The translations under genes were made by a program, and so were the position numbers. Below are positions 7,392-61,636 of a DNA stretch of 64,000 bases, piece by piece. The DNA is from an uncultured Gemmatimonadaceae bacterium. GTDB taxonomy: Bacteria > Gemmatimonadota > Gemmatimonadetes > Gemmatimonadales > GWC2-71-9. The DNA is taken from NCBI GenBank assembly GCA_964642475.1, contig CAZXRC010000001.1:3560-67559 (forward strand). The letters run 5' to 3'. The notes under the pieces are model-generated. The model was given only the letters and a program-made list of their open reading frames with translations. It was not told the origin of the DNA and did not search any database. Each line of letters begins with the position of its first letter. The first letter of the stretch is position 1.

Positions 7392-8264
7392 CTAGATCAC
7401 CCGGGCCGGATGGGTGTACACCGTGTGCCGTCCGCCGCGGACGAAGCCCACCAGGGTGAGACCCGCCTGCTGCGCCACCCGCACCGCCATCCCGGTCGGC
7501 CCGGATACCGCCGCCAGGAGCCCGGCACCCAGCACCGTGGTCTTCTGCACCATCTCGAAGCTGGCCCGACTGGTCACCACCACGAAGCCGACCGCCCCGT
7601 TGGCCCCGGACCGGGCCAGCGCCCCGATGAGCTTGTCGAGCGCGTTGTGCCGACCCACATCTTCCCGGACCAGCCGCACCTCCCCGTCCCGATCGGCCCA
7701 CCCCGCCGCGTGCACCGCGCCGGCCTCCCGGTTAAGTGGCTGCCGCGCGCCGAGTTCCTCCATCGCCCGCTGGATCGCCGAGGCGCGGATCGGCGGGCCC
7801 GCCACCACGGGATGGAGCTGCTTGAGCACCGCGGCAATGCTGTCGCTCCCGCAGATACCGCATCCGGTGCGGCCGGCCAGCCGGCGGGACCGGGAGGCGA
7901 TTTCCCCCTCGCAGGCGGCGTCCACCGTCAGCTGGACTTCGATGCCCTGCCCGTAGGTCACCACCTTGGCCTCGGTCAGGTCCGCCGGGCTTCGGATCAG
8001 CTCCTCGGTGAGGCTGAATCCGAGCGCAAAATCCTCCAGGTCGGCGGGCGTGGCCATCATGACGACGTGGGGAATGCCGTTGTAAACCAGCGCCACCGGC
8101 ACTTCTTCCACAATCCGCTCGTCACTCTCCCGGGAGACTCCGTTCTCCCAGCGGACCGCGCGGTGCCCGAGCAACGGCTTGGCATACCCCAGCCGCAGGA
8201 GCCCCAGGGGGTCCCGCATCTGTTCCAGATCGGCGCGCATTGGCGTCTCCCGGGTCGAAGTCAC
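7392..8264 (-). CDS. fdhD: Formate dehydrogenase accessory sulfurtransferase FdhD
   Basis: 290 aa. Strings: GRTGCGICGSDSI, EDVGRHNALDKLIGA, VVTSRASFEMVQK. Confidence 0.85.
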   Translation of the reverse strand: MTSTRETPMRADLEQMRDPLGLLRLGYAKPLLGHRAVRWENGVSRESDERIVEEVPVALVYNGIPHVVMMATPADLEDFALGFSLTEELIRSPADLTEAKVVTYGQGIEVQLTVDAACEGEIASRSRRLAGRTGCGICGSDSIAAVLKQLHPVVAGPPIRASAIQRAMEELGARQPLNREAGAVHAAGWADRDGEVRLVREDVGRHNALDKLIGALARSGANGAVGFVVVTSRASFEMVQKTTVLGAGLLAAVSGPTGMAVRVAQQAGLTLVGFVRGGRHTVYTHPARVI

Positions 8265-14756: not shown

Positions 14757-15806
14757 ATGCGAGCTCTCGTCAAGACCGCCGCCGGCCCCGGCATGGACGT
14801 GCGTGACGTCCCCCATCCGGTGTGTGGACCGAGCGACGTGATCATCCGGGTCCACCACGCCGGCGTCTGCGGCACCGACCTGCATATCTGGGAATGGGAT
14901 GCCTGGGCCAGTGGGCGCCTGAGGCCGCCGGTCGTCATCGGCCACGAATTCGCCGGCGACATCGTGGAGCTCGGCACCGAAGCCCGCCAGGAAGGCCTCC
15001 TCGCCGTGGGTGACCTGGTCACCGCCGAGGGCCATATCGTCTGCGGCCACTGCCTCCCGTGCCGCACCGGCAACGCTCATGTCTGCCGTCGGACCCGGAT
15101 CATCGGGGTGGACCGCGATGGCGCCTTCGCCGAGTACATCGCGATGCCCGCCTCCAACGTCATGAAGCTGGACGGCATCCCCACCGAGATCGGCGCCATC
15201 ATGGACCCGATGGGGAACGCGGTGCATACGGTCCTGGAGGGCGGCAATGTGCCGGGGAGCGCCGTGCTGGTGCTGGGGTGTGGACCGATCGGCTGCTTCG
15301 CGGTGGGAGTGGCCCGTGCCGCCGGGGCCTCGCTGGTCATCGCCAGCGATTACAACCCCATGCGGCTCGAGCTCGCCCGGACCATGGGCGCCCATGTCAC
15401 GCTCAATCCCGGTCAGGACGATGTCGTCGCCCGGGCCCGGGATCTGACCGGCGGCGAGGGCGTCGACCTGGTCTGCGAAATGAGCGGCCACCCCGCCGGC
15501 CATCAGACCGCGTTCAGCGCCGCCCGCCTCGGCGGCCGGGTAAACTTCCTCGGCACCCCCAGCAAGACCACCGAGGTCAACTTCGCCCGCGACGTCATCT
15601 TCAAGGGCCTCACGCTCTACGGCGTCACCGGCCGCCGGATGTACGACACCTGGCAGCAGATGTTCCGTCTGCTCCGCGCCGGTCAGCTCGACCCCCGCCC
15701 GGTCGTGACCCACCGCTTCCGGCTGGAGCAGATGGCCGAGGCCATTCAGGTGATCAAAGACGGCCAGGCGGGCAAAGTGATCCTCGAGGTGCGACGTGAT
15801 GGGTGA
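14757..15806 (+). CDS. tdh: L-threonine 3-dehydrogenase
   Basis: 349 aa Zn-dependent ADH. Strings: MRALVKT, GVCGTDLHIWEWDAWA, GHEFAG, GCGPIG. Followed by kbl, as in the canonical tdh-kbl pair. Confidence 0.9.
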   Translation: MRALVKTAAGPGMDVRDVPHPVCGPSDVIIRVHHAGVCGTDLHIWEWDAWASGRLRPPVVIGHEFAGDIVELGTEARQEGLLAVGDLVTAEGHIVCGHCLPCRTGNAHVCRRTRIIGVDRDGAFAEYIAMPASNVMKLDGIPTEIGAIMDPMGNAVHTVLEGGNVPGSAVLVLGCGPIGCFAVGVARAAGASLVIASDYNPMRLELARTMGAHVTLNPGQDDVVARARDLTGGEGVDLVCEMSGHPAGHQTAFSAARLGGRVNFLGTPSKTTEVNFARDVIFKGLTLYGVTGRRMYDTWQQMFRLLRAGQLDPRPVVTHRFRLEQMAEAIQVIKDGQAGKVILEVRRDG

Positions 15807-20148: not shown

Positions 20149-20519
20149 CCCCGGCGCCAGCTCGCGGACCTGCCCGGACCCGGTGCCGGGAAGTCATGCG
20201 GAATTGGAGCGCCGAGGATGTGCACTACTCGGAAAATGAGGCGGCGGTCCCAATGACCGCCGCAACGGGCCGGCGCGGGGCCCGAGCCTTCCTGGGCTGT
20301 CTCGGAAGTGATTCCGGGAGATCCAGCTTTCCGACGCGGCACCGGGTGTCCCGCGGGGATTGTGGAGGAAGGCAGGGGAGGCCTGCGCCGGCCGACGAAA
20401 ATGTATGTCGGTGCAGGAGATACGGGTAGTGGCGGAAGTAGTGTGATGGCTCAACCCCGATGGGAGGCGGTGGAGGTGTCCGCTCCCGTGCTAAGCGGGG
20501 CCTTTCAACTGACAGTCCC

Positions 20520-20544
20520 CAACCGCGCCTGACTCAACCGCGCC
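20520..20544. repeat. Direct repeat CAACCGCGCC-N5-CAACCGCGCC in the long non-coding gap
   Basis: Read directly: copies at 20520-20529 and 20535-20544 are identical (15-nt period). Confidence 0.7.
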
Positions 20545-20715
20545 ACCGGTGCAGACCCCGGGCACGGATGGTTGCGGTCCCACCACATGTCCGGGACGAG
20601 GGCTCCAAAATGAGGTCCTTGCGCCGGCCCTGACGCGTAGAGGTAAGGGTTTCTCGAATAACGAGTTAGCCAACGTCTCGGTGGCCGGCACGTCGCGCCG
20701 GCCAATCCCGGACGC

Positions 20716-20731
20716 TGGCTCGCCTATTGCG
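20716..20731 (+). promoter_or_regulatory. Candidate sigma-54 (-24/-12) promoter upstream of the asnB-like gene
   Basis: TGGCTCgcctaTTGCG versus consensus TGGCAC-N5-TTGCW (9 of 11 defined positions; GG and GC correctly spaced). Intergenic, correct strand, but 275 nt from ATG 21005. Confidence 0.3.
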
Positions 20732-21004
20732 TTCCCCCGGCCCGAAGGCAGGGGAAATCTTGTCCCGGCCTGGTGCCGCGTCCCTCGGTAATCCGCTTAC
20801 TCGAACCCCGTGACAGCGCTGCCAGCAAATCACTCCGCCGGTCGAGCCGCCCGGGCGCCGCTGCGCTCGTTCCGCCATCCGAGGCTGGCGGTCGCCCCCG
20901 CACGGGGACGCCCGGCGCGGCCGCGGGCATTCCAACACCCGCTTGAGCTCCGCATTCTGCCCCGTCTCGAGGAGACGCCGGGCAGGGGAGCACGCTGAAA
21001 CTCG

Positions 21005-23104
21005 ATGTGCGGCATTCTGGCGGTGATGCAGCGGGACGGCGCGCCCATCGATCCCGAGCTGGTCGCGCGCATGCGGGACACGATGGCCCATCGTGGCCCC
21101 GACGACGTCGGACTGCGGTCCGATGGGGTGGTGGCCCTGGCCCATCGGCGCCTGTCGATTCTCGACCTGACCGCGTCGGGCCACCAGCCGATGTGCAATG
21201 AGGATGGCACGATCTGGATCGTCCTCAACGGCGAGATCTACAACTACGTCGAGCTGACGGCCGATCTGATCCGGCGGGGCCACCAGTTCCGCTCCCGCTC
21301 CGACACCGAGACGATCATCCACCTCTACGAGGAGTACGGGGTCGGCTGCCTCGACCACCTCGTCGGGATGTTCGGCTTCGTGCTGTGGGATGCGCGCAAG
21401 CAGCAACTGTTCGCCGCCCGGGACCGGATCGGTATCAAGCCCGTGTACTACCACGAAACGCCCGAGCGGTTGACCTGCGCCTCCGAGATGAAGGCCCTGG
21501 TCGACGATCCGGCCGTGGCCCGCCGAGTCGACCACCGCGCCATGGCGGACTTTCTCTTCGCCGGTCAGTACCTCGGTGGCAAGACGCCGTTCGAGGGCGT
21601 CCGCGAGCTGCCCCCCGCCCACTATCTCCTCGCCACCCGCGAGCGTACGACGCTGGCCCGCTACTGGGATCTCGAATTCGACTACCACGAGCGGTCATGG
21701 GATGACACCGTGGCCGAGGTGCGTTCGCTGCTCGATGATGCGGTGCGAATCCATTGTCGCAGCGATGTCCCCCTGGGATGTCACTTGAGCGGCGGTCTCG
21801 ACTCGAGCACGGTAACGAGTTTCGCGGTGCGCCACTGCCAGGGAATGCCGGCGTTCGCGATCCGCTTCGAGGGCAATGGGAAGCAGTACGACGAGACCCG
21901 TTACGCCAAGGCGGTCTGTGCCGCCAGCGGGACCCGCTACCTCGAGGCCACCCCCGGGCCGGAGGACTTCTGGCGGCTGCTGGCCTCGCTGGTCTGGCAC
22001 ATGGACACCCCGCTCTTCGGCATCGGTGCCTTCTCCTACTACACGGTCTCCCGTCTGGCCTCCCGGTTCGTGAAGGTGACGCTGACGGGTCACGGCGGCG
22101 ACGAGATCTTCGCGGGGTATCCCGCCCAGTTCGCGGCCACCTTCGGGACCACGGCGATGTTCGACCGCCTGGTGTCGGGCCATCGTCCGGCCGCACCGCT
22201 GGCCCGCCTGACACGCCTGCTCCGGGAGCGCGGAGTCCGGGGCGTCTACGGCGCCCTCGCCAGGCGGCTGCGGAACCTGGCGCGGGGGCCGGAGACCCTG
22301 GAGGAGGTGTGGGTCGGGCTCCACTGCAACGTGCTGGACCGGTCGAATTACGAGACCGGCTTCGTGCGGGGACTGGGGGGGTACTCGCCGCTCGAGGAAT
22401 ACCTGGCGCCCTTCCGGCGGGCCCGCACCACGGAGACTCTGGATCGCTGCCTCTACCACGACCTGGTGAGTTACCTCCCGAGCCTGCTGCACCAGGAGGA
22501 CCGGGTCAGTATGTCGCTCTCAGTCGAGTCGCGGGTACCGCTCCTCGACCATCGCCTGGTTCAGCTGCTGGCCACCGTCCCACCCGCCCTGAAAGCCCGT
22601 AACCGCGAACCCAAGGCGCTGCTGCGGGCCGCCGCGCGGGGGACCGTGACCGATCAGGTCCTCGACCGACGGGACAAGGTGCCGTTTTCCGTCCCGATCC
22701 AGCCCTGGCTCGAGGGGCCGCTCTGGCCCCGCATCCGGGAGCTGCTCGAGTCCCGGGTCGCGCGCGACCGGGGCATCTTCCGCCACCCGGCGGGCGGCAT
22801 CCGGCCGGACACGCCCGACCTGTGGAACCGGCTCAACATCGAGGTCTGGCACCGGATCTTCATCGACCAGGATCCGGCCTGGACCGCCATGATCGGGGCC
22901 GCGCGGGAGGGAGCTGGCCGGGGAGTCGAGACCGGGTCGGCAAGCGCTTCGGGAGTCGTGCGGGACCCGCCTCGAAGCAAGCGCCGGGCCCACCTCGAAG
23001 AAGAAGCGGGCGCCGGCGGGGGAAGGGGTCGCCTCCACCATGAGGGCCGGCCGCATCGTCTGGACCAGCTTGCGGCGGACCTGGAGCCCGAGCCCGGCAC
23101 CTGA
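21005..23104 (+). CDS. Asparagine synthase (glutamine-hydrolysing)-family amidotransferase
   Basis: 699 aa. Starts MCGILAV (Ntn Cys). Strings: HRGPDD, RRLSILDL, LNGEIYNY, LSGGLDSS (PP-loop). About 70-aa charged C-terminal extension. This paralogue type is commonly embedded in EPS/O-antigen loci. Confidence 0.8.
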   Translation: MCGILAVMQRDGAPIDPELVARMRDTMAHRGPDDVGLRSDGVVALAHRRLSILDLTASGHQPMCNEDGTIWIVLNGEIYNYVELTADLIRRGHQFRSRSDTETIIHLYEEYGVGCLDHLVGMFGFVLWDARKQQLFAARDRIGIKPVYYHETPERLTCASEMKALVDDPAVARRVDHRAMADFLFAGQYLGGKTPFEGVRELPPAHYLLATRERTTLARYWDLEFDYHERSWDDTVAEVRSLLDDAVRIHCRSDVPLGCHLSGGLDSSTVTSFAVRHCQGMPAFAIRFEGNGKQYDETRYAKAVCAASGTRYLEATPGPEDFWRLLASLVWHMDTPLFGIGAFSYYTVSRLASRFVKVTLTGHGGDEIFAGYPAQFAATFGTTAMFDRLVSGHRPAAPLARLTRLLRERGVRGVYGALARRLRNLARGPETLEEVWVGLHCNVLDRSNYETGFVRGLGGYSPLEEYLAPFRRARTTETLDRCLYHDLVSYLPSLLHQEDRVSMSLSVESRVPLLDHRLVQLLATVPPALKARNREPKALLRAAARGTVTDQVLDRRDKVPFSVPIQPWLEGPLWPRIRELLESRVARDRGIFRHPAGGIRPDTPDLWNRLNIEVWHRIFIDQDPAWTAMIGAAREGAGRGVETGSASASGVVRDPPRSKRRAHLEEEAGAGGGRGRLHHEGRPHRLDQLAADLEPEPGT

Positions 23105-23217
23105 GCGGGAGGCGGGGACGGACCGCGGACGGTCGACTTGCGCGTTGCCCCCCGGTCACAGAGCAGGGTATCGTCCAGCCGCTCACCCAACCCGCGCTCA
23201 CAGGAGACCAATCTCGC

Positions 23218-24195
23218 ATGTCCCGTAACGCCGGCTTTCGCGCAGGGGAATGGGTCGAAGTGCGGAGCGCGGCTGAAATCCTCGCGACGCTCGGCAGTGA
23301 CGGAACCCTGGACCGGCTGCCCTTCATGCCCGAGATGCTGGAGTACTGCGGCAAGCGGTTTCCGGTCTATCGGCGGGCCGACAAGACCTGCGATACCATC
23401 CATGCCTCCTTGTCCCGCCGCATGGAGAACGCGGTGCACCTCGAAGGGCTGCGCTGCACCGGGGCCGCCCACGGTGGCTGCCAGGCGGAGTGCCTGCTCT
23501 TCTGGAAGGAGGCCTGGCTCAAGCGACCGGACGACACCCGGCCCGCGCCAGAGAGTGGGGGGATCACCGCCGCCCAGTTGGAGCAGAGCGCCAGAAAAGC
23601 CGGGGAGCCGGAATCGTTCGCCTGCCAGGCCACGGAGCTCTATCGCGCCACCGCCGAAATGCCCTGGTACGACCTCCGACAATATTTTCGCGAACTCCGC
23701 TCGGGCAATGTCACGCTCGGCACCATGCTCAAGACCTTCGCCATCGCCTGGTACAACGTGCTGGCCCGGCGGTTGTCCCGACTCGGCGTCAAGCGTTACC
23801 CCTACGTGGCCGGCCACTGCGTCGGCAGGACCCCGACCGAAACGCTAAGCCTGCAACCCGGCGAACTGGTCCGGGTGAAGCCGAAGGCCGAGATCATGAA
23901 GACCCTCGGGCCGGACCGGAAGAACCGGGGTCTCCTGTTCGATGTGGAGATGACCCCGTTCTGCACCCGGACCTACCGGGTTCGGCGCCGGGTGGAGCGG
24001 CTTATCAACGAAAAGACCGGCGCGATGATGACGATCCCGCGGGACTGCATCGTGCTCGACGGGGCCTACTGTGGAGGACGGCTGAGCAAGGACCGCCTCT
24101 TCTGCCCGAGGAGCATCCCCTCGTTCTGGCGCGAGATCTGGCTGGAACGGGTCCCGGCAGCCGAAGCCTCCCCGGTCGAGCGGCCGCAGCCCTGA
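23218..24195 (+). CDS. Hypothetical protein with an internally duplicated ~95-aa Cys-containing domain
   Basis: 325 aa. Residues 10-103 and 215-311 align: GE.V.V+...EI..TLG.D....L.F..EM...C....Y.V.RR ... L.G..C.G.....C.....FW+E.WL+R. No family recognised. Third codon positions are G/C-rich as in the neighbouring genes. Confidence 0.5.
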   Translation: MSRNAGFRAGEWVEVRSAAEILATLGSDGTLDRLPFMPEMLEYCGKRFPVYRRADKTCDTIHASLSRRMENAVHLEGLRCTGAAHGGCQAECLLFWKEAWLKRPDDTRPAPESGGITAAQLEQSARKAGEPESFACQATELYRATAEMPWYDLRQYFRELRSGNVTLGTMLKTFAIAWYNVLARRLSRLGVKRYPYVAGHCVGRTPTETLSLQPGELVRVKPKAEIMKTLGPDRKNRGLLFDVEMTPFCTRTYRVRRRVERLINEKTGAMMTIPRDCIVLDGAYCGGRLSKDRLFCPRSIPSFWREIWLERVPAAEASPVERPQP

Positions 24196-24227
24196 GGTGG
24201 GGCGAGTGCCCCGTGGGCCGGGCCCGC

Positions 24228-24944
24228 CTATCGCAGATCGGGGCGGCGGGCCAGCCAGTCAGCCAGCTCGAGGTCGAAGGGCGAGTCGATATTGACGACC
24301 GGCCGTTCGATCACCACCGCCGCGCAATTCTCCTCGATGATGTGCCCCCGATCCACCAGCGTCTCCCGGCGCACCGCATAACAGACCCCATTCCGGTGGT
24401 AGTAGGCGGGAATGTCCTGGCGCAGGGAGAATCGTGCGCCGTCCTCCACGTAATACCCCAGGGTCCCGGCCGGGCCCACCGTCAGGGTCTTGTGGGGACT
24501 GCAGTGCCCCGGCGTCGGACTGACCGTGGCGGCGGCGGCGAAGTCCCCCTCGAGCAGCACCCGGACGGTCCGCTCGACATCTTCGGCCCGGCGTAAGGGG
24601 CTGGTGGGTTCGAGCAGGATGGACAGGTCAAACCGGCGGCCGTGGATCTCCTCGGCCGACGTCCAGGCGTGCCGCCACATGTCGACCGACTTGGCCTTGT
24701 CCCCGGCCAGGGCCTGGGGCCGGACGAACGGGACGGCCAGCCCGTGCTGCTCGGCCTCCCGGGCAATGTCCGGATCATCCGTAGACAGCAGCGCTGCATC
24801 GAGCCAGGGCAGCTGCCGAATAACCCTGGCGGCGTGCCCGATCAGGCTGGTACCCGCGACCTCCCTCAGGTTCTTCCGGGGAATCCCTTTGCTGCCGCCA
24901 CGCGCCGGCACCACCGCCAGCACCGACACCCCATGCAGCGCCAT
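24228..24944 (-). CDS. neuA: Acylneuraminate (nonulosonate) cytidylyltransferase
   Basis: C-terminal 239 codons of ORF 24228..25190. ATG 24944 overlaps the upstream stop (ATGA). Strings: VLAVVPARGGSKGIPRKNL, LLEPTSPLR, YYHRNGVCYA. Confidence 0.8.
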   Translation of the reverse strand: MALHGVSVLAVVPARGGSKGIPRKNLREVAGTSLIGHAARVIRQLPWLDAALLSTDDPDIAREAEQHGLAVPFVRPQALAGDKAKSVDMWRHAWTSAEEIHGRRFDLSILLEPTSPLRRAEDVERTVRVLLEGDFAAAATVSPTPGHCSPHKTLTVGPAGTLGYYVEDGARFSLRQDIPAYYHRNGVCYAVRRETLVDRGHIIEENCAAVVIERPVVNIDSPFDLELADWLARRPDLR

Positions 24945-25948
24945 CAGGCAATCTCGTCCAGGGTCACGGCCCGGCCGGTGGCGTGGCTCTGGCGTCCGGC
25001 CTCGATGACGCGCAGCACCGCCACCCCGTCCTCGATGCCGCAGGTGCGGACCCTCTCGCCCCGCAGGACGTCGAGAAACTCGCGGGCGGCCGCCACGAAC
25101 ATGTCGTTCCGTTGGCACTCGAATTCCTGCACCTGCCAGTCCGAATCCAGGTCCTTCCCATGGCTCACCCGGTTCGGCCGCTCCGACCACTCGATCGTGC
25201 CCCCGTCCCCGACGAGCTGAATCCGCTTCTGGTGAGGACGGCCGTACAGATCGAGGTGCACGTTCACCCGCGGTCCCCCCGGATAGCTGAGCAGCATATC
25301 GACATTGTCGTCAGTGCTGATCTCGAGGTCGCTGATCTTCTCGATCCTGGCGACGACCTCTCCCGGCATGCCAAACAGCCACAGCATGATGTCCAGCCAA
25401 TGGCTCTCGTCCAGCAGGGCCCCGCCGCCGAGATCCCGGTGGGCCATGAAGAAGTCGCGGTAACTCTCCCACGGATGCCAGTCGGCGAGGTGGGCGGAGA
25501 GGACAAATCGCGCATGCAGCACGCGCCCGACCGCCCGCTCGGCCAGGAGCCGCTTGACGACACCGAGCGGCGGCCACCAGCGCCAGGTATACCCGAGGAG
25601 AAGCGGCACACCGGTGGCCGCCACCTCGGCCTGCAGGGTCCGGGCTTCCGCGAGCCCGGCGGAGACCGGCTTCTCCAGGAGCACCGGGATCCCCGCCGCC
25701 AGGCAGGTGAGGGCCTGGGCAACGTGGGCAGTCGGGGGGGACGCGATCACCACCCCATCATACCGGTGGCCGGCCAGTGCTTCTTCCACCGAGCCGAAGG
25801 CGCCGCCCAGCGGCAGCTCGCCGGCCAGCTCCGCTCGCCGGTCTTCCCGCGGATCCATGCAGGAGATGGTGCAGCCCTCAGCCGCGAGATTACGGGCGTG
25901 CCGCTTCCCCGCGCTGCCGGTGCCGATGATCAGAACGTGTCGGGTCAT
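24944..25948 (-). CDS. Gfo/Idh/MocA-family NAD(P)-dependent oxidoreductase
   Basis: Last 335 codons of ORF 24944..26302. ATG 25948 (MTRHVLIIGTGSAGKRHARNL). LLEKPVS (EKP motif). C-terminal alpha/beta domain. Confidence 0.75.
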   Translation of the reverse strand: MTRHVLIIGTGSAGKRHARNLAAEGCTISCMDPREDRRAELAGELPLGGAFGSVEEALAGHRYDGVVIASPPTAHVAQALTCLAAGIPVLLEKPVSAGLAEARTLQAEVAATGVPLLLGYTWRWWPPLGVVKRLLAERAVGRVLHARFVLSAHLADWHPWESYRDFFMAHRDLGGGALLDESHWLDIMLWLFGMPGEVVARIEKISDLEISTDDNVDMLLSYPGGPRVNVHLDLYGRPHQKRIQLVGDGGTIEWSERPNRVSHGKDLDSDWQVQEFECQRNDMFVAAAREFLDVLRGERVRTCGIEDGVAVLRVIEAGRQSHATGRAVTLDEIA

Positions 25949-25970
25949 GGTTCCATTCAAAGGTGCTGGG

Positions 25971-27515
25971 TTACGCCCGGATCCCCTGGACCATCGCCTG
26001 GTACGCCTCCGGATCGAACGCGACCTCGATGAACCCCGGGCCCGATTCGGGGTTCCACGACGCCAGGGCGCTCTCCAGGTCTGCCAGGGATTCGGCCCGG
26101 GTGCCCGGCAGTCGCAGTCCCTCGAGGGGCCTGAGCCAGCTCGGGTTCCGCATGAGCAGCGGCTCCTGGACCAGCCCCTTGGCGATCGCCCGGGTCCGCA
26201 CCGAGCCGTACCCCCCATCGGACAGGAGCAGCACCAGCAGGGGAAGGCGGTGCTCCACTGCGAGCTTGAGCTCGGCCACGAAGGTCCCGATGCCGCCGTC
26301 ACCCACCGCCACTACCGTCGGCACCGACCGATCGTGCAGCGCGGCCCCGATGCCGGTGGGCAGGCCGATCCCCATGTATCGCCCCTGGCCCGACCCCAGG
26401 CACCACTCGGCCTTCCGCGCCCGCCACGCGTGCTCACCGATAGTGCAGAAGTAGCCGGTATCGAGCACCAGGCGGGCCCGGCCGTTGAATCTGGCTTCCA
26501 CCGCCCGAAAGGCGTGGGCCGGCAGAAACGGTCGATCGAGCAGATGGGTGTCGAGACGGTGGAGGATCTCCCCCAGCTCCTCGAGCCCCCACGACACCTG
26601 CCCAAGCGACCCCAGGACGGTATCCAGCGCTTCCAGACCCGCGGTGGCCGCATGGGTATACCCCGGGGACAGGGCTTCCCCCATGGGATCGATCGAGACC
26701 GAGGGCGCGGAGAAGGGCGCGGCACTGAGCACTTCGCTGCTCCTGACACCGACGCACACGATGAGGTCCGCCTTCGCCAGCAGGGTCGCCTCCGGCACCA
26801 TCGCCAGACCGACACCGGTATAGACCCCGGCGGACTGCGGCAGGGTCTCGTCCAGGACGCCTTTGGCGGCGGCCGTGCTGAAGACCGGGATATGGAGCGC
26901 GGCCAGGCGCCCCGCGAGCCCCAGCCGTATCCCCAGCGTCCCCACGATCAGAATCGGCCGGCGGCTTTGTGACACCAGGCGCGTCACCTCGCCGGCCGGC
27001 GGAGTGGGCGGGGGAGGGATCGGGTCCGCCTGATCGATGGCGCCGTCGGCCACCTCCAACAGGACCGGCCCGGGAGCCTCCGCCGCCGACCAGTCGGCCA
27101 GTTCGCGGTATCCAGGTCCGTTGCGGCTGATGAAGCGTCGCCCTTTGGCGACGGCGCCCACCAGCAGCCCCTGGTCGATCCGCTTGTGTTGCTTGGCCGC
27201 GGGGGTTCCAGGCGGATATGCCTCGGCGATGGCGACCAGGGGCCAGGATTCGAAGTGACAGGCAGCGAGACCCGGAAGCATGTTGGCCAACCCGGGTCCC
27301 TTGATCGAGAGCGCCACACCCGGTACGCCGGTCAGGCGACCGAGGACTCCAGCCATGATGGCCGCTGCCGCTTCACAGTGCACCGGATAGAAGGGCATGC
27401 CGGCTCGAATTACGGCATCCGCGATAGTCAGCGTGGGACCGCTGCCCAGCACCCCGAAGCCCGCGGGAGTTCCCGCGCCAACGATGTCCCGCGACAGCAT
27501 TTCGAGCGCGCTCAC
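25971..27515 (-). CDS. Thiamine-pyrophosphate-dependent enzyme (acetolactate-synthase-like fold)
   Basis: 514 aa. N-terminal Pyr domain (HCEAAAAIMAGVLGRLTG.PGVALSIKGPGLANMLPGLA). C-terminal TPP motif VGDGGIGTFVAELKLAVEHRLPLLVLLLSDGGYG. Confidence 0.75.
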   Translation of the reverse strand: MSALEMLSRDIVGAGTPAGFGVLGSGPTLTIADAVIRAGMPFYPVHCEAAAAIMAGVLGRLTGVPGVALSIKGPGLANMLPGLAACHFESWPLVAIAEAYPPGTPAAKQHKRIDQGLLVGAVAKGRRFISRNGPGYRELADWSAAEAPGPVLLEVADGAIDQADPIPPPPTPPAGEVTRLVSQSRRPILIVGTLGIRLGLAGRLAALHIPVFSTAAAKGVLDETLPQSAGVYTGVGLAMVPEATLLAKADLIVCVGVRSSEVLSAAPFSAPSVSIDPMGEALSPGYTHAATAGLEALDTVLGSLGQVSWGLEELGEILHRLDTHLLDRPFLPAHAFRAVEARFNGRARLVLDTGYFCTIGEHAWRARKAEWCLGSGQGRYMGIGLPTGIGAALHDRSVPTVVAVGDGGIGTFVAELKLAVEHRLPLLVLLLSDGGYGSVRTRAIAKGLVQEPLLMRNPSWLRPLEGLRLPGTRAESLADLESALASWNPESGPGFIEVAFDPEAYQAMVQGIRA

Positions 27516-28456
27516 CGGGCCCGCTCCAGCTCGGCCAGCACCTTCTCGGCGGCCCGGCCGCAGACCACGCGGACGGCGTCGGGCGAGTACCCGCCACAGT
27601 GCGGGGTGATGAGGACGTTGTCCTGCGTCCGTGAGAGCGCGAGGAGCGGATTGCCCTCGATCTCCGGCTCCCCTTCCAGCACATCGACGCCCACTCCGCC
27701 GAGCCGCCCGGTCGACACCGCCTCCGCCAGGGCCCGCTCGTCCGCGACCGCGCCGCGCGAGGTGTTGACGAAGATCGCCCCCGGCTTCATCCGCGCGATC
27801 AGGTCTCGACTCACCAGGCCACGGGTCGTTTCGCTCAGATGCACGTGGACCGAGAGCACGTCGGCGCGCGAGGCCACCTCGTCAAGAGTGGCCGGCTCGA
27901 TCCCCTCCGGCCAGGGCGAGACCACCGGATCGAACCCTACCACCGTCATCCCGAAAGCCCGGGCGTACCGGGACATCCACTGCCCGATCCGGCCGCATCC
28001 GATGACTCCGAGGGTCCGCCCATTGAGCATCATCCCCGGGAAGTCTTCCCGGACCCACTGCCCGGCTCGGGTGTGAGCCACGGCCGGGACGAGCCTCCGG
28101 GCCAGGGCCATGACGAGCGCCCAGGTCAGCTCCGCGGCCGGGGTCAGATTGCGGAGCAGCTCCGGATCCTCCTTGAGCGTGCGGACCGGGATCCCCCGAA
28201 CCCCGGTCTCTCCCCGCTCGATGTGATCCGACCCGGTCGTGGCGGTCGAGATCACCCGCAGGTTCGGCGCGGCCCGGACCATCGCATCGGTGATCCGCAC
28301 CTTCATCGAGGCGTCGATGAGCGCGTACGACCCGCTCAGGGCTTCCGCCACCCGAGCGGGCTCGGCCGGCACATGGGACAGCTGGCAGCGGTCACCGATG
28401 ACCTCCTGGGCCGCCTCCGCACCTTCGGCGGGCCCGACGTACACCACACGCTTCAT
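27512..28456 (-). CDS. D-isomer-specific 2-hydroxyacid dehydrogenase (NAD-binding)
   Basis: 314 aa. Strings: LGVIGCGRIGQWMSRYARAFGMTVVGFDP, FVNTSRGAVADE, ITPHCGGYS. Its stop overlaps the start of the downstream TPP-enzyme gene (4-nt overlap at 27512-27515). Confidence 0.8.
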   Translation of the reverse strand: MKRVVYVGPAEGAEAAQEVIGDRCQLSHVPAEPARVAEALSGSYALIDASMKVRITDAMVRAAPNLRVISTATTGSDHIERGETGVRGIPVRTLKEDPELLRNLTPAAELTWALVMALARRLVPAVAHTRAGQWVREDFPGMMLNGRTLGVIGCGRIGQWMSRYARAFGMTVVGFDPVVSPWPEGIEPATLDEVASRADVLSVHVHLSETTRGLVSRDLIARMKPGAIFVNTSRGAVADERALAEAVSTGRLGGVGVDVLEGEPEIEGNPLLALSRTQDNVLITPHCGGYSPDAVRVVCGRAAEKVLAELERAR

Positions 28457-28501
28457 GGACTCTCCAGTTCACCTGCGTTTAGCCGGCGGGCCGCGGACGG
28501 C

Positions 28502-29224
28502 TCAATAGGACTTCTTCAGCGGCCGAATGCTGAGATCGGTGACTTCGGCGGTGGCCGGAAGCCTGAGGCAGGTCAGGACCACCTCGGCCACGTCCTGCGG
28601 CTGTAACAGCACCTCGGGCTGGTAGGTCTTTCCGTCCTCGGCGTACAACCCCTCCTGCATGGGGGTTGCGGTACGGCCTGGATAGACGCTCAGCACCCGG
28701 ATCCCCTCGGGATTGACCTCCGCCCGCAGCGCGTCCGTGAGGGCCCGCAGCGCGTGCTTGCTCGCGGCATACTGCCCGACCGTAGCCTGGGAGGATAGCC
28801 CTGCGCTGGAGTTGATGACGACGATCTGACCGGGAGGGTGGCGCAACCGTGGAAGACAGACCTGCACCAGGCGGTAGTTCGCGCGTACGTTGACGCGGTA
28901 CAGCTCATCGAGGTCGGCCGCCGGCGTGGTGGCCACGGCGCCACGGGCAATCGCGCCGGCGCTCAGCACCAGCATGTCCAGCGTGGGGTGGTTGGCCTCG
29001 AGGTGCGCCTGGAGCGCGTCGAGCTCGTGCTCCACGCCCAGATCGACGGCCTTGATGGAGTGGCCCGCGCCGGCCAGCGCCCCCTGTACCGCCGCCAGTT
29101 TCTCCGGACGGCGTCCGACCAGACACACCCTGGCACCGCTGAGCGCGAGCCCCTCCGCGATGGCTCGTCCGATGCCGCTCCCCGCACCGGTGACGAGAGC
29201 GACACGGCCTGCCAGCGACTGCAT
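28502..29224 (-). CDS. Short-chain dehydrogenase/reductase (classical SDR)
   Basis: 240 aa. Strings: VALVTGAGSGIGRA, NSSAG, YAASKHAL (YxxxK). Confidence 0.8.
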   Translation of the reverse strand: MQSLAGRVALVTGAGSGIGRAIAEGLALSGARVCLVGRRPEKLAAVQGALAGAGHSIKAVDLGVEHELDALQAHLEANHPTLDMLVLSAGAIARGAVATTPAADLDELYRVNVRANYRLVQVCLPRLRHPPGQIVVINSSAGLSSQATVGQYAASKHALRALTDALRAEVNPEGIRVLSVYPGRTATPMQEGLYAEDGKTYQPEVLLQPQDVAEVVLTCLRLPATAEVTDLSIRPLKKSY

Positions 29225-29347
29225 GGCACCTCATCGGTTCAAGGTCTCGTGCCGGACTCGTGACGCGCCGGTGAGTCCACCGCGCATCTCGCGAAGGGTC
29301 AGGCCCACGACCCACGAGCCTGGCCCGCAATTCCGCGGCAGGGGGCT

Positions 29348-29363
29348 CGCAAGTGGCGTGCCG
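29348..29363 (-). promoter_or_regulatory. Candidate sigma-54 (-24/-12) promoter of the SDR...neuA operon
   Basis: Minus strand reads CGGCACgccacTTGCG (9 of 11 consensus positions, spacing exact), about 125 nt upstream of ATG 29224, in the 200-bp spacer. An inverted repeat GACTCC-N5-GGAGTC (29381-29397) lies just upstream. Confidence 0.4.
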
Positions 29364-29424
29364 GAGAGCCGGGGGACACCGACTCCGACCAGGAGTCAGC
29401 GGAGCACTCCGGCCGTCCGGTTCT

Positions 29425-30528
29425 TCACGGCCGTTCGGAAGCGCGACGCAGATCCAGCTCGAAGAAGAACCGGGTGCCGGTCTCCTGCTGAACCGGTTCG
29501 ACCTTGAGGTTGGATCGCATGGCCTCGACCAGCTTGCGGCAGATCGAGAGGCCCAGCCCGGCGCCGGAGAAGGCGTACTCGCCCTGCTTCTGGCGTCGGC
29601 GGAACGGCTCGAACAGAGTCAGGATGGCCTGGGGCGGGATGCCCCGCCCGGTATCGCGCACCGAGAAAACCACCTTGTCCCCCTCCCCTTCATCGGCCCG
29701 CAGCTCCACGTATCCCTCCGAGGTGAACTTGAGGGCGTTGGTGGTGAGGTTGAGGAGGACGCGGGAGAGTGCCACCGGGAAACCGACCCGCAGGTCGCTC
29801 TGGGGCATGTGCATCCGGACGGTGAGTCCCTTCTCTTCCGCGATCGGCTGCACGATGTCCCGTACCGATTCGAAGATGTCGGCGATGGAGAACGGCAGCG
29901 GATCGAGATCGACCAGCCGATCCCCACCCCGAGCCAGCTCGATGACATCGCTGGCCATGGACGACAGGCCGAACGCCGCCGAGTAGATCAGGCCGAGCTG
30001 GCGCTCCTGCACCGGGGTGATGGGCCCGCTGCGGCCGCGCTGCAGGGTCTCCGCCAGGAACAGGATCGAGGTCAGCGGAGAGCGGAGATCGTGGGCCACC
30101 TCCACCACCAGTTCCATCCCGTCGGGGCCCGAGAGCCGATTGGCGAAGTGCTGGGCCCAGTCCGGTTCGATCGCCTGGGAAATCGACTCGATGGCTCTCA
30201 GCACCCCCAGGAGCTGGGCGGGCGGGGGCGGCGGATCGAGGCGCGCGGCGCCGGCCAGGAAACCGCGCCGGATCAGCTCCAGGAGCCGCCGGCTCAGGAC
30301 GGTGCGGGGAACCTCCTCCGCGGCCGACTCTCCCCGCCCGGCCCGCTCGATGGCGCCCACCAGCAGCCGGAGCTGCCCCCGAACTTCCTCCTCGGACGGA
30401 CTGTCCTCGGCCACCTGGAGCCAACCGGCCGCGACCTCGTCGGCGACCCGCTCGATGATCTTCCAGAGTCCGGCCGGCTGGTCCGCCGGCCCCGCGGGGT
30501 GGCCGGCGGCAAGGCTCAGTTCACTCAC
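29425..30528 (-). CDS. Sensor histidine kinase, soluble (no predicted TM segments)
   Basis: 367 aa. H-box VVEVAHDLRSPLTSI. N/G boxes LLNLTTNALKFT, RDTGRGIP, GAGLGLSI. GTG start overlaps the response-regulator stop (GTGA 30525-30528). Confidence 0.8.
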   Translation of the reverse strand: MSELSLAAGHPAGPADQPAGLWKIIERVADEVAAGWLQVAEDSPSEEEVRGQLRLLVGAIERAGRGESAAEEVPRTVLSRRLLELIRRGFLAGAARLDPPPPPAQLLGVLRAIESISQAIEPDWAQHFANRLSGPDGMELVVEVAHDLRSPLTSILFLAETLQRGRSGPITPVQERQLGLIYSAAFGLSSMASDVIELARGGDRLVDLDPLPFSIADIFESVRDIVQPIAEEKGLTVRMHMPQSDLRVGFPVALSRVLLNLTTNALKFTSEGYVELRADEGEGDKVVFSVRDTGRGIPPQAILTLFEPFRRRQKQGEYAFSGAGLGLSICRKLVEAMRSNLKVEPVQQETGTRFFFELDLRRASERP

Positions 30529-46049: not shown

Positions 46050-46287
46050 GCAGGCGATCCTGGAGACTCTCACCCGTATCCTGCGGGATCTCCTCGCGGA
46101 CGATTCTATCGTGCTGACCATGGACACCCGCCGGGAGGAGGTGCCCAACTGGGACTCCATGTCCTACGTCAGCTTCATTGTCGCGGTGGAAATCGAGTTG
46201 GGCGTGAAGTTCGGTGTGGCCGAAGTGGAAGGGTTCGCCAACGTGGGCGCCATCGTCCGACGGATCCAGTCCCTGGTCTCCCGCTAG
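46042..46287 (+). CDS. Acyl carrier protein (stand-alone)
   Basis: 81 aa. Phosphopantetheine site NWDSMSYV (Ser39). Four-helix pattern. Start overlaps the FkbH-like stop by 8 nt. Confidence 0.75.
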   Translation: MTEQAILETLTRILRDLLADDSIVLTMDTRREEVPNWDSMSYVSFIVAVEIELGVKFGVAEVEGFANVGAIVRRIQSLVSR

Positions 46288-46312
46288 CCCGCGCGCGAGG
46301 AAGGCACCGCCC

Positions 46313-47947
46313 ATGCTGTTCAACTCGTACGAGTTCATCTTCATCTTCCTGCCGCTCACCCTGGCCGGGTTCTTCCTGCTCGGCGCGCGGGACCGGACAT
46401 GGGCGATCCGCTGGCTGATCCTCGCCTCTCTGCTGTTCTACGCCTGGTGGCGGCCGGTCAATGTCCTGATCATCGCCCCGTCGATCGTCATCAACTTTTT
46501 CCTGGCCCGTACCCTCCTGCGCCTGAGAGACGGCACCCGTCCGGGCCTGGCGCGGGCGGTCCTGATCGCCGGGATCGCCTTCAACGTGCTGTTCCTGGGG
46601 TACTTCAAGTACGCCAATTTCGCGGTCGGCGCGGTCAACGATGTCATGGGAACCGACCTGGTCCTGGCCCAGATCATCCTGCCCCTGGGAATCTCCTTCA
46701 TCACGTTCCAGAAGATCGCGTTCCTGGTGGATGTGCACGCCCAGCGGATCCAGGAGTTCACGCTGCAGGACTACGCCCTGTTCGTCCTGTTCTTCCCTCA
46801 GCTGGTGGCCGGACCGATCGTGCACTACCGGGAGATGATGCCCCAGTTCCAGCGGTCCAGCTGCCGGTTCGACCGGGAGAACGCCGCGGTCGGCCTGACC
46901 CTGTTCGTGATGGGGCTGACCAAGAAGGTGTTCTTCGCCGACGGGATCGCGGCGATCGTGAGCCCGATCTACGCCCGGGCCGCGGAAGGAGGCCCCATCT
47001 CGCTGCTGCCGGCCTGGATGGCGGCGCTGGGGTTCACTCTGCAGATCTACTTCGATTTCTCGGGCTACACCGACATGGCGCTGGGTCTGGGTCGGTTCGT
47101 CGGAGTGCGGTTCCCGCCCAACTTCAACTCACCGCTCAAGGCCACCAGCATCATCGAGTTCTGGCAGCGCTGGCACATGTCCCTGACGCGGTTCCTGACG
47201 GCGTACATCTACAACCCCCTGGCCCTGTGGCTCACCCGGCGCCGGCTGGCCCGGAAGCTCCCGCCGCTCACCCGGGCAAGGCCGTCGGCCGGCGCTTTCC
47301 TCTCGCTGGTGATGTTCCCGACCCTGGTCACGATGTTCATCTCGGGTCTGTGGCACGGCGCCGGGTACCTGTTCATCATCTGGGGCGTGCTCCATGGGGT
47401 CTACCTGACCATCAACCATGCCTGGCGGCTGTGGTCCCCCCGGATCTGGCCCGACCAGGAGCAGCGCACGCGGGTCATGAGGCCGGTGGGGTTCCTCCTG
47501 ACATTCGTCTCGGTGGTGGCGGCGATGGTGATTTTCCGTGCCCCCACCACTGGGGCCGCAGCCGACCTGCTGCGCGGCCTGGTGGGCCTGAACGGGATCG
47601 GCCTGCCCACATCCATCCTGGACCACCTGGGCCCGCTCAGCGCCATTCTGCGGCGGCTCGGAGTCGAGGCGGGCCTCGGCGCCGGCCTCTACCTCGATTT
47701 TGGCGACATGGTGATCTGGGCCGGAGGCCTGCTCCTGATCGCGCTGACCCTGCCCAACACCCTGCAGCTGCTGGCCCGGTACGAACCCGCGCTGGAGTTC
47801 TCGCCCGACCAGCACGGCCTCAGGATCGGCCGCTTCACGCTGGCGTGGCGCCCGACCCTGACGTGGGCCGTGCTGGTCTCGGTGGTGGCCGCCGTAGGGA
47901 TGCTCCACCTGGGCGGTCAGAGCGAGTTCCTCTACTGGCAATTCTGA
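46313..47947 (+). CDS. MBOAT-family membrane O-acyltransferase (AlgI/DltB-like)
   Basis: Inside ORF 46214..47947; ATG 46313 (MLFNSYEFIFIFLPLTL). Strings: ISFITFQ, DFSGYTDMALG, FNSPLKATSIIEFWQRWHMSL, ISGLWHGAGY (catalytic His region). Multi-pass. Confidence 0.85.
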   Translation: MLFNSYEFIFIFLPLTLAGFFLLGARDRTWAIRWLILASLLFYAWWRPVNVLIIAPSIVINFFLARTLLRLRDGTRPGLARAVLIAGIAFNVLFLGYFKYANFAVGAVNDVMGTDLVLAQIILPLGISFITFQKIAFLVDVHAQRIQEFTLQDYALFVLFFPQLVAGPIVHYREMMPQFQRSSCRFDRENAAVGLTLFVMGLTKKVFFADGIAAIVSPIYARAAEGGPISLLPAWMAALGFTLQIYFDFSGYTDMALGLGRFVGVRFPPNFNSPLKATSIIEFWQRWHMSLTRFLTAYIYNPLALWLTRRRLARKLPPLTRARPSAGAFLSLVMFPTLVTMFISGLWHGAGYLFIIWGVLHGVYLTINHAWRLWSPRIWPDQEQRTRVMRPVGFLLTFVSVVAAMVIFRAPTTGAAADLLRGLVGLNGIGLPTSILDHLGPLSAILRRLGVEAGLGAGLYLDFGDMVIWAGGLLLIALTLPNTLQLLARYEPALEFSPDQHGLRIGRFTLAWRPTLTWAVLVSVVAAVGMLHLGGQSEFLYWQF

Positions 47948-58264: not shown

Positions 58265-58367
58265 AGGCAGCCCGTATGCATCCCGCGCGCTGGCGCAATA
58301 GGTAAGGACATCTGACACTCGTCACGCGCACCCGGCCGCCTCTCGTGACCCGGCCGGGCGCGCTGCT

Positions 58368-60688: not shown

Positions 60689-60760
60689 GCCCACCCGCCC
60701 CCGGCGCCGCCGGCCGCCCCGTCCGGGCCGGCCCGGTCTCTGCGCGCGATCACTCCCGGG

Positions 60761-61588
60761 TCAGATGACATCGGCGAAGGTCCGTTCGGTGCTGCGGAAG
60801 TACCAGATCCCCGTGGCCAGGAGGACCAGCGAGACGGTGGTGGAGATGACGATGCTGGCGGGCTCCAGCCGGTTCTCTCCACCCAGGATGGACCAGCGGA
60901 ATCCGTCGATCACCCCCACCACCGGATTGAGCGCGAAGACCAGGCGGTACTTCTCGGGGACGACATTGCTGGAGAACCCCACCGGGGAGATGTACAGGCC
61001 GAACTGGACCACGAAGGGCAGGATGAAGCGCACGTCCCGATAGCGCACCAGCAGGGCGGAGGTCCAGAGCCCGGCGCCGAAGGACGCCGCCAGGACCAGC
61101 ACCATGAACAGCGGCAGCAGGACCACGGCCGGCGAGGGCACCTGGCTGTACCAGATCATCAGCGCGACCAGGAACGCGAACGAGACCAGGAAGTCGACCA
61201 GGCTGGTCGCGAGGCTGGCCGCGGGAATCAGAAGCCGCGGGAAGAAGACCTTGGAAATCAGGCCCGCGTTCGAAACCAGGCTCTCGCCGCTGGCCGTGAC
61301 CGCCGTGGCGAAGAACTGCCAGGGAAGCAGGCCGCAGAACACCATCAGGGGGTAGGGCACGCCGCCCGAGGGCATCTTGCCGAGCCGGCCGAACACCACC
61401 GTCAGCACCACCATCGTAAGCAGCGGCCGGATCAGAGACCAGGCGACCCCCACGATGGTCTGCTTGTAGCGGACCAGGAGGTCGCGCCAGGCGAGGAAGA
61501 GAAAGAGCTCCCGGTACCGCCACAGGTCCTGCAGGTAGCGCTGGCCCCGGGGGTCGGCCGAGATCACGGTTTCGTCAGAGACCATCAT
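60761..61588 (-). CDS. wzm: ABC-2 type polysaccharide exporter permease (Wzm-like)
   Basis: 275 aa. Strings: LWRYRELFLFLAWRDLLVRYKQT.VGVAWSLIRPLL; six hydrophobic segments. Confidence 0.8.
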   Translation of the reverse strand: MMVSDETVISADPRGQRYLQDLWRYRELFLFLAWRDLLVRYKQTIVGVAWSLIRPLLTMVVLTVVFGRLGKMPSGGVPYPLMVFCGLLPWQFFATAVTASGESLVSNAGLISKVFFPRLLIPAASLATSLVDFLVSFAFLVALMIWYSQVPSPAVVLLPLFMVLVLAASFGAGLWTSALLVRYRDVRFILPFVVQFGLYISPVGFSSNVVPEKYRLVFALNPVVGVIDGFRWSILGGENRLEPASIVISTTVSLVLLATGIWYFRSTERTFADVI

Positions 61589-61636
61589 TGAGCCGTAAGG
61601 GGTGAACGACGGTCGTCGCGTGCGGGGCGGCGGGGT

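Follow-up and report, generated by a model that had tools for sequence, protein, structure and literature searches.

What is the gene for a CMP-nonulosonate synthetase doing at the end of an operon that also encodes a thiamine diphosphate (ThDP) enzyme and a D-2-hydroxyacid dehydrogenase (2HADH)? The question is raised by 64,000 nucleotides from an uncultured Gemmatimonadaceae bacterium (assembly GCA_964642475.1, contig CAZXRC010000001.1, positions 3,560 to 67,559 of the forward strand), the stretch of DNA that was analysed as a whole and is called the window below. Nonulosonic acids are the capping sugars of bacterial capsules, lipopolysaccharides, flagella and S-layers, and they govern host and phage recognition. 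To our knowledge, all known routes to them, which lead to the neuraminic (Neu), legionaminic (Leg), pseudaminic (Pse) and Kdn types and their epimers, leave the nine-carbon skeleton unchanged and differ only in stereochemistry and in the N- and O-substituents. The comparison of 80 genomic loci indicates that the operon is very probably the late half of a conserved six-gene nonulosonic acid module. This cassette represents a widespread, unstudied pathway, the product of which is probably a previously undescribed sugar.

The operon consists of the following five genes:

28502–29224, minus strand: classical short-chain dehydrogenase/reductase (SDR), 240 aa, first gene of the operon (Pfam adh_short, 150 bits)
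27512–28456, minus strand: 2HADH similar to phosphoglycerate dehydrogenase (PGDH) and glyoxylate reductase, 314 aa (Pfam 2-Hacid_dh and 2-Hacid_dh_C, the latter with 174 bits)
25971–27515, minus strand: three-domain ThDP enzyme of the decarboxylase/acetolactate synthase (ALS) superfamily, 514 aa, GTG start (TPP_enzyme_N/M/C, 59/45/56 bits)
24944–25948, minus strand: NAD(P)-dependent sugar dehydrogenase of the Gfo/Idh/MocA family (Gfo), 334 aa (GFO_IDH_MocA N/C, 61/65 bits)
24228–24944, minus strand: NeuA/PseF-like CMP-ulosonate synthetase, 238 aa, last gene of the operon (CTP_transf_3, 51 bits)

The open reading frames (ORFs), their strand, coordinates and family labels had been given in the original prediction, with which the ORF calls and Pfam results agreed; all five ORFs are present and have a coding-type GC3 of 0.83–0.89.

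A Conserved Six-Gene Cassette

Relatives of the ThDP protein formed more than 630 protein clusters in the protein collection, with identities of 46–57%. The first three genomic contexts that were examined all had the order NeuB-NeuC-(0 or 1 gene)-2HADH-ThDP-Gfo-CTP_transf_3. A genome scan with one genome per species yielded 98 ThDP relatives, and 80 loci, extending up to 10 kb to each side, were kept and scored with the window proteins. The 2HADH gene was directly upstream of the ThDP gene in 65 of 69 loci, Gfo was located no more than 3 kb downstream of it in 66 of 72, and a cytidylyltransferase was found within 4.5 kb in 63 of 68. NeuC and NeuB were present within 10 kb of the ThDP gene in 45/61 and 43/61 loci, respectively. 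The block 2HADH-ThDP-Gfo-NeuA is almost invariant and usually stands straight after neuB-neuC. Such recurrence of a four-gene order, in about 65 of 70 independent loci, far exceeds what chance would produce, and additional contexts agreed with it.

The original prediction had connected the ThDP enzyme and 2HADH with the nonulosonate pathway, and the strong conservation of their synteny with neuA in relatives (65/69 and 63/68 loci) bears out this functional tie. It had, however, regarded the five genes as the unit. The conserved unit comprises six genes (neuB, neuC, 2HADH, ThDP, Gfo and neuA), and an SDR orthologue was found in none of the 80 loci; the SDR gene is a lineage-specific, local addition to the cassette.

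The cassette is spread over at least ten bacterial phyla and one archaeon, and the host records of the 80 loci are all metagenome-assembled genomes (MAGs). The hosts include Alpha-, Beta-, Gamma- and 'Delta'-proteobacteria, Acidobacteriota, Nitrospirota, Calditrichota, Marinimicrobia, Planctomycetes, Bacteroidota, Bacillota, Rokubacteria, one bacterium of the candidate phyla radiation and one methanogenic archaeon, Methanoregula. The cassette is commonest in Rhodospirillales MAGs, in one of which it lies within a flagellar cluster. Carriers are almost all uncultured, with no cultured organism named among the 80 loci or the 240 protein matches listed. The ThDP gene was not found on plasmids by a tblastn search of 72,556 plasmids. 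Likewise, a full-text literature search gave no paper linking a ThDP enzyme, acetolactate synthase or 2HADH to the biosynthesis of nonulosonic, legionaminic or sialic acids.

Where neuB and neuC are missing from a locus, the host is mostly a member of a single marine alphaproteobacterial lineage, whose pathway is divided in the same way as that of the window. The distance of 28 kb between neuA and neuB/neuC, to which the original prediction had drawn attention, is real, but the separation is a derived state.

Several other genes accompany the cassette frequently, though not universally. Among them are a SAM methyltransferase gene between neuC and 2HADH, an MsbA-like ABC exporter gene upstream, a sulfotransferase gene directly after neuA, and genes for two glycosyltransferase-like proteins of about 460 aa. 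Polysaccharide deacetylase genes are located downstream in about 16–21 loci and do not belong to the core. Only a minority of the loci had genes of the Leg type (DegT, CBS-nucleotidyltransferase).

The Early Half of the Pathway and the Starting Sugar

In the window, neuB and neuC were found immediately downstream of the ABC transporter genes wzt and wzm, which agrees with their placement at 57.1–59.4 kb within an ABC-transporter operon in the original prediction:

60761–61636: wzm
59426–60760: wzt
58368–59441, minus strand: NeuB-type nonulosonate synthase of the early pathway half, start codon not fixed, likely ORF 58368–59405 (Pfam NeuB, 212 bits, and SAF)
57098–58321, minus strand: NeuC-type hydrolysing UDP-GlcNAc 2-epimerase, likely ORF 57098–58270 (Epimerase_2, 226 bits)

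They are followed by genes for a family 2 glycosyltransferase (GT2), a sugar C-methyltransferase, a DUF4910 protein, an NDP-sugar epimerase/dehydratase and a nucleotidyltransferase.

NeuC meets the hydrolysing-epimerase equivalog TIGR03568 (344 bits at a cut-off of 236) and scores 240 bits against the GNE epimerase domain and 188 bits against the LegG-type epimerase. NeuB stays below the N-acetylneuraminic acid (Neu5Ac) synthase equivalog TIGR03569 (282 vs. 400), which is still its best family (PseI, 200), and in the PDB it matches NeuB of N. meningitidis with 165 bits and PseI with 126 bits. A Neu5Ac-type starting sugar is favoured, since NeuC passes the hydrolysing-epimerase equivalog with GNE as its nearest relative and NeuB is nearer to the N. 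meningitidis enzyme than to PseI. Both proteins resemble counterparts that adjoin the cassette elsewhere: NeuC is 70% identical to that of locus L077, and NeuB is 66% identical to that of locus L049.

The genome is 98.7% complete and contains two CTP_transf_3 genes, namely the neuA-like gene of the window and a true kdsB, as well as only one strong NeuB. Given one strong NeuB and one cytidylyltransferase other than KdsB, the neuA-like gene must serve the neuB/neuC pair 28 kb away.

Acquisition of the Module

Both halves of the pathway were acquired in this species, and they lie in different operons of one polysaccharide island. The ThDP enzyme was absent from 300 sampled genomes of the phylum other than this one, 10 of them from the same genus. 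In 13 relatives (10 of the same genus and 3 of the same family), a search for NeuB homologues gave either none or ones with only 28–37% identity. According to blastn, the homologues of window positions 14.7–20.2 kb and 29.43–32.0 kb are only about 1.3 kb apart in the near-complete congeners G122 and G045, which marks the part from 20.2 to 29.4 kb as an insertion:

20200–29430, strand not applicable: inserted block of about 9.2 kb with an AsnB-like gene, a Cys-repeat protein gene and the five-gene operon including the SDR gene, missing in G122 and G045

Its left junction coincides with an ORF-free gap of 856 bp at 20149–21004.

In a maximum-likelihood tree, the ThDP enzyme of the window grouped with that of another Gemmatimonadaceae MAG (L005; 78% identity, support 100/100), and a Rhodospirillales copy was the sister of this pair (97/97). 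The Methanoregula copy was nested among Thermodesulfobacteriota, and one Nitrospira copy grouped with Burkholderiales. The insertion, the absence in congeners and the placement in the ThDP tree indicate that the module is mobile, and sequence comparisons leave little doubt that it has spread through many phyla by horizontal transfer. The exopolysaccharide island of this genome has gained a complete foreign sugar pathway in two pieces.

Sequence Features of the Operon Proteins

None of the five operon proteins reached the curated cut-off of any NCBIfam equivalog; their sequences place them in families but assign them no function. The ThDP enzyme, 2HADH and Gfo nevertheless look catalytically intact. 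In the ThDP enzyme, E48, G405-D406-G407 and D433 were invariant among 30 diverse ThDP sequences (motif GDGG...SDG), and by alignment E48 is the Glu that activates the cofactor. The catalytic Glu and the cofactor residues are thus retained, in line with the original prediction. The motif has Asp at the position where ALS has Asn. The residues H110, K111, K124, C357, E361, H362, R379 and R440 were likewise invariant in these 30 sequences; among them, H110, K111, H362, R379 and R440 form a cationic set. In our reading of the alignment, an invariant H110-K111-R112 replaces the F-Q-E segment of ALS, which suggests a polyanionic substrate.

The best sequence match of the ThDP enzyme in the PDB was catabolic ALS (100 bits). 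Its AlphaFold2 model (pLDDT 92.6) was closest to the solved fold of the catabolic ALS of K. pneumoniae (TM 0.84, 24% identity), and the model also came close to 2-hydroxyacyl-CoA lyases, plant acetohydroxyacid synthase and carboxyethylarginine synthase (68 bits, TM 0.80); the fold search had no functional discrimination, with all ALS, 2-hydroxyacyl-CoA lyase and carboxyethylarginine synthase folds matching at TM 0.77–0.85. Acetolactate synthase itself was rejected as an identity, with scores of 128 for NF006187 (cut-off 509), 99 for AlsS NF006378 (510) and 86 for IlvB TIGR00118 (538). Phosphonopyruvate and sulfopyruvate decarboxylase routes were also rejected: these enzymes presumably have two domains and lack the central one, which the ThDP protein possesses, and there was no phosphoenolpyruvate (PEP) mutase among the genes called beside the cassette.

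For 2HADH, the catalytic-type residues R234, E263 and H286 were conserved in at least 95% of 51 orthologues. The protein is nearest to phosphoglycerate dehydrogenases and glyoxylate/hydroxypyruvate reductases, its best PDB matches being 5tx7 and the PGDH of M. tuberculosis (about 144 bits). It is not SerA, since TIGR01327 gave 189 at a cut-off of 454 and was matched only at positions 41–301 of 525, that is, over the catalytic domains. The EKP motif (E92-K93-P94) and H183 of Gfo were conserved in at least 95% of 54 orthologues. An identity with IolG was dismissed for Gfo (TIGR04380, 104 vs. 355), and no other iol family was present in the Pfam results for the window. By analogy, Gfo probably oxidises a hydroxyl of the CMP-sugar. 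The best NCBIfam match of the cytidylyltransferase was PseF (109, cut-off 205.7), and its best PDB matches were 6ifd (92 bits) and the CMP-NeuAc synthetase of N. meningitidis (70 bits).

The SDR narrowly missed its best NCBIfam, PRK08219 (212.8 vs. 218). Its closest homologues (58–61% identity) came mostly from Acidobacteriota-type contigs, and in 3/3 contexts their gene closed an operon with the order E1alpha-E1beta-E2-split transketolase(N)-split transketolase(C)-SDR. Because these homologues end ThDP-enzyme operons in all three cases, the SDR family appears to be a habitual companion of ThDP enzymes. The SDR of the window is probably a ketoreductase for an acyloin-type product of the ThDP enzyme, recruited in this lineage. 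The six-gene operons of its relatives (L086:1928-7726, L087:1835-7729 and L088:1885-7729) look like an uncharacterised multi-ThDP-enzyme unit, and that of L086 adjoins the glycan genes GT2, PMT_2, GDSL and MBOAT.

Comparison with Known Systems

The locus has some features of the Neu pathway and some of ElaABC and YerE, and it is neither a canonical three-gene Neu pathway nor an ElaABC unit. With the CMP-Neu5Ac pathway (SiaA/SiaC/SiaB of N. meningitidis, E. coli K1), it shares the hydrolysing UDP-GlcNAc 2-epimerase, the PEP-condensing synthase and the CTP_transf_3 cytidylyltransferase, and the NeuB and NeuC of the window resemble the Neu type more closely than the Pse or Leg type. In contrast to that pathway, the cassette has three extra invariant enzymes (2HADH, ThDP and Gfo) before neuA, its NeuB and NeuA remain below the equivalog cut-offs, and its halves are 28 kb apart in the window.

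SDR and Gfo partners of cytidylyltransferases, which the original prediction had mentioned, are indeed on record. ElaA/ElaB/ElaC of A. baumannii KL49 was proposed to be a C8-epimerase of CMP-Leg5,7Ac2, in which ElaA is proposed to form CMP-8-keto-Leg and an SDR then reduces it (PMC13656337). Adjacent PtmA, LegF and PtmF genes occur in the Leg loci of Campylobacter, Plesiomonas and Vibrio (PMC4481668). As in ElaABC, the Gfo gene of the cassette adjoins the cytidylyltransferase gene, with a 1-nt overlap in the window, and an SDR gene is present there. The resemblance of K93/H183 in the window Gfo to the catalytic K91/H181 of ElaA is one of residue number only, without an alignment. Unlike the Ela system, the cassette has no conserved partner SDR (0/80 loci), the SDR gene of the window is placed upstream, and 2HADH and the ThDP enzyme have no counterpart in ElaABC. 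ElaA was not found among the PDB sequence matches of the window Gfo, and the Leg-cluster Gfo in locus L083 reached only 87 bits against it.

For surface glycans, ThDP enzymes of the YerE-like group decarboxylate 2-oxoacids with chain lengths of C2-C8 and attach the remaining unit to CDP-4-keto sugars before a reductase acts; in this way, YerE/YerF and ErwE carry out the ThDP-dependent C-branching of CDP-4-keto-3,6-dideoxyglucose that leads to yersiniose and erwiniose (PMC12247030). The ThDP enzyme of the cassette has the same three-domain decarboxylase-superfamily fold with the catalytic Glu and the ThDP/Mg motif, and it is likewise encoded in a surface-glycan locus. It has neighbours that could make a keto sugar (Gfo and a cytidylyltransferase, in 63–66 of about 70 loci) and, in the window, a candidate ketoreductase, the SDR, and its use of such an acceptor is predicted from this context. 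The acceptor would be a CMP-ulosonic acid instead of a CDP-hexose, and a dedicated 2HADH is present. With AlsS (K. pneumoniae 1OZF, B. subtilis 4RJJ), the enzyme has the catalytic Glu and the GDG...D/N motif in common, but the identity is only 24%, a budA/ilv context is lacking, and the family sits in nonulosonate loci throughout.

Sugars of a suitable kind have been described in Magnetospirillum gryphiswaldense, namely CMP-activated alpha-keto sugar acids with a backbone longer than C9, to which no genes were assigned (bioRxiv 10.64898/2026.04.20.719630; PMC8157484). Magnetospirillum is a genus of the Rhodospirillales, whose MAGs are the most frequent carriers of the cassette; the findings in Magnetospirillum are chemical, those on the cassette genomic. 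It is conceivable, albeit doubtful, that the module represents the missing genetics of such carbon-skeleton-modified, non-C9 sugars, i.e., C-branched or C10+ CMP-ulosonic acids as in M. gryphiswaldense, which would then be widespread on the surface of uncultured bacteria of the sea, soil and sediments and on that of one or more methanogens.

Proposed Pathway and Alternative Explanations

We suggest the following pathway for the synthesis of the cassette sugar. NeuC and NeuB would build a nine-carbon ulosonic acid of the Neu5Ac type or, less likely, of the Leg type, and the cytidylyltransferase would activate it with CMP. Gfo would then turn one hydroxyl of the CMP-sugar into a ketone or aldehyde, as proposed for ElaA. 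Meanwhile, 2HADH would convert a 2-hydroxyacid to the matching 2-oxoacid, which the ThDP enzyme would decarboxylate in order to add the acyl-anion equivalent to the oxidised carbon, in a reaction of the YerE/ErwE type on a cytidine-nucleotide keto-sugar. This would give a CMP-ulosonic acid with a C-branch or an extended chain. In the present lineage, the extra SDR would reduce the new acyloin carbonyl, and the product would enter the polysaccharide exported by Wzm/Wzt. The six core genes include no acyl- or alkyltransferase, and for this reason the ThDP enzyme must itself make or break the decisive bond. The combination of oxidation by Gfo and addition by the ThDP enzyme, drawn by analogy, is a possibility to which we give somewhat less than an even chance. 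For the explanation as a whole, in which the well-founded module is blended with this mechanism, the chances appear about even, and we consider it the best one available.

Several points weigh against the proposed mechanism, which is based on sequence, context and precedent. The ThDP enzyme appears to differ from YerE in lineage, having ALS as its best match, and it is probably not a sequence member of the YerE-like group; the PDB entries 5ahk and 9ev3-6, which we take to be YerE-like entries (PpYerE, JanthE), matched it at about 49–52 bits vs. 100 for AlsS. Enzymes of the 2HADH type normally need a carboxylate beside the carbinol, and 2HADH might therefore act on the sugar acid itself or on a product instead of supplying the donor. 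ThDP enzymes of this fold also cleave C-C bonds, as IolD, cyclohexanedione hydrolase and benzaldehyde lyase do. A PglF-like dehydratase and a DegT aminotransferase are encoded on contig C25 of the same genome, which makes a Leg-type precursor conceivable, though less likely. Finally, the activity of ElaA has itself been proposed and docked only (PMC13656337).

One alternative, which takes up the idea of the original prediction, is that small molecules are the substrates of 2HADH and the ThDP enzyme, or that both work at a stage ahead of NeuB. They might provide a lactyl-, glyceroyl-, glycolyl- or carboxyethyl-type O- or N-substituent, the last as in carboxyethylarginine synthase, or else an altered aldose that NeuB condenses with PEP. 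Carboxyethylarginine synthase is a structural neighbour of the ThDP enzyme (68 bits, TM 0.80), the score of NeuB (282 vs. 400 for Neu5Ac synthase) would fit a substrate other than plain ManNAc, and the polysaccharide deacetylase genes downstream in about 16–21 loci could be accommodated. The invariant core, however, includes no transferase or ligase by which a free acid could be attached, and the deacetylase is outside it. Moreover, Gfo would be left without an obvious role, and NeuC, which passes the hydrolysing-epimerase equivalog with GNE as the closest epimerase, points to ordinary ManNAc. We regard this alternative as unlikely.

A second alternative reverses the direction of the carbon-carbon chemistry. 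Here Gfo would oxidise C7 or C8 in the glycerol side chain to a ketol, the ThDP enzyme would cut the neighbouring C-C bond in the manner of transketolase, benzaldehyde lyase or IolD to give a truncated C7/C8 ulosonic or ulosaric acid, and 2HADH would use the 2-hydroxyacid end formed in this way. The ketol motif of transketolase-type donors would be present in an 8-keto sialic acid, which is established chemistry, and 2HADH would obtain a natural sugar-acid substrate. Cyclohexane-1,2-dione hydrolase and benzaldehyde lyase, both C-C cleavers, are among the PDB matches of the ThDP enzyme, and the AsnB-like amidotransferase that recurs in the window and in loci L001, L077 and L098 could amidate the new carboxylate. 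On the other hand, the best sequence and fold matches of the ThDP enzyme are carboligases (ALS) and not lyases or hydrolases, the SDR is better suited to acyloin reduction, and we know of no natural truncated sialic acid. Such cleavage is quite unlikely in our opinion.

The original prediction had also considered that the NeuA homologue activates a different ulosonic acid. This would be an acid not derived from NeuB and NeuC, e.g., a keto acid assembled by the ThDP enzyme, and the link to neuB/neuC would reflect no more than a shared glycan locus. The four genes do stand away from neuB/neuC in the window and in one marine alphaproteobacterial lineage. In most loci (43–45 of 61), however, neuB/neuC directly precede the block. 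The genome has a single strong NeuB and, apart from KdsB, a single NeuA-like gene, and among congeners the cassette and its neuB/neuC type are either both present or both absent, which makes an unrelated acid improbable. An epimerase of the Ela type, with Gfo, SDR and NeuA epimerising one carbinol of the CMP-sugar (cf. 8-epi-legionaminic acid) and with 2HADH and the ThDP enzyme as passengers, is scarcely credible even though all three components are found in the window, considering that the SDR is absent from all 80 cassette loci, lies upstream of 2HADH whereas elaA, elaB and elaC are just three adjacent genes, and has its relatives in ThDP-enzyme operons rather than nonulosonate loci, and that the genes for 2HADH and the ThDP enzyme are kept almost without exception and are coupled in translation.

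If carbon-carbon bond formation by the ThDP enzyme or its reversal should prove true, carbon-carbon chemistry on an activated sialic acid would be a new mode of diversification, and the cassette would make the orphan higher-carbon ulosonic acids known from mass spectrometry accessible to genetics. It would also offer biocatalysis a new ThDP carboligase or lyase for bulky nucleotide sugars and open enzymatic access to sialic-acid analogues that are hard to synthesise.

Operon Layout and Additional Observations

Within the operon, the gaps are 45 bp between SDR and 2HADH and 22 bp between ThDP and Gfo. The stop of 2HADH and the start of the ThDP gene overlap by 4 nt (GTGA), as previously stated for position 27512; the overlap at 24944, for which 4 nt had also been given, is only 1 nt long (TGATG, Gfo stop and neuA start). 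No terminator-like sites were found between the five genes. Three such sites all lie inside the Gfo ORF, and their number was not above that in shuffled sequence. The five minus-strand genes are probably co-transcribed. A candidate sigma-54 promoter 5' of the SDR gene (GGCACG-N5-TTGA, ending about 14 nt before the ATG) was not convincing because of its wrong spacing and the lack of GC at -12.

Some loci have a second, more canonical cytidylyltransferase gene or a full second NeuB/NeuC/Gfo/CTP set beside the cassette (L004 at 7406–8128 and 14849–15562, L007, L012, L070 and L083). In these organisms, the cassette sugar would be made besides an ordinary nonulosonic acid. In the gammaproteobacterial MAG of locus L044 (12603–14420), the cassette cytidylyltransferase is fused to a C-terminal 'nos_propeller' domain and has 606 aa. 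In an alphaproteobacterial MAG (L048:11533-14014), an MBOAT protein and a 328-aa unknown protein occupy the usual place of Gfo. The window also encodes an MBOAT protein (46208–47947, within an FkbH/ACP/MBOAT module), which is 42% identical to the MBOAT of the L048 family, with the best match in L047; this hints at an O-acylation module linked to the cassette sugar. A complete cassette is found in locus L098 (GCA_042466075.1, JBHMJB010000002.1:158259-177806).

Two further genes occupy the inserted block between its left junction and neuA:

21005–23104, strand not given: AsnB-like amidotransferase
23218–24195, convergent to neuA: Cys-repeat protein, 325 aa, with a two-copy Cys domain

The AsnB-like glutamine amidotransferase recurs in the vicinity of the cassette in unrelated loci (L001:20364-21545, L077:18227-20167 and L098:16570-18426), and it could amidate a carboxylate of the sugar or the polymer. 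The Cys-domain protein had no Pfam or NCBIfam match. Its counterpart in the one other Gemmatimonadaceae carrier (L005:3613-4776) is 77% identical and has an equivalent position.

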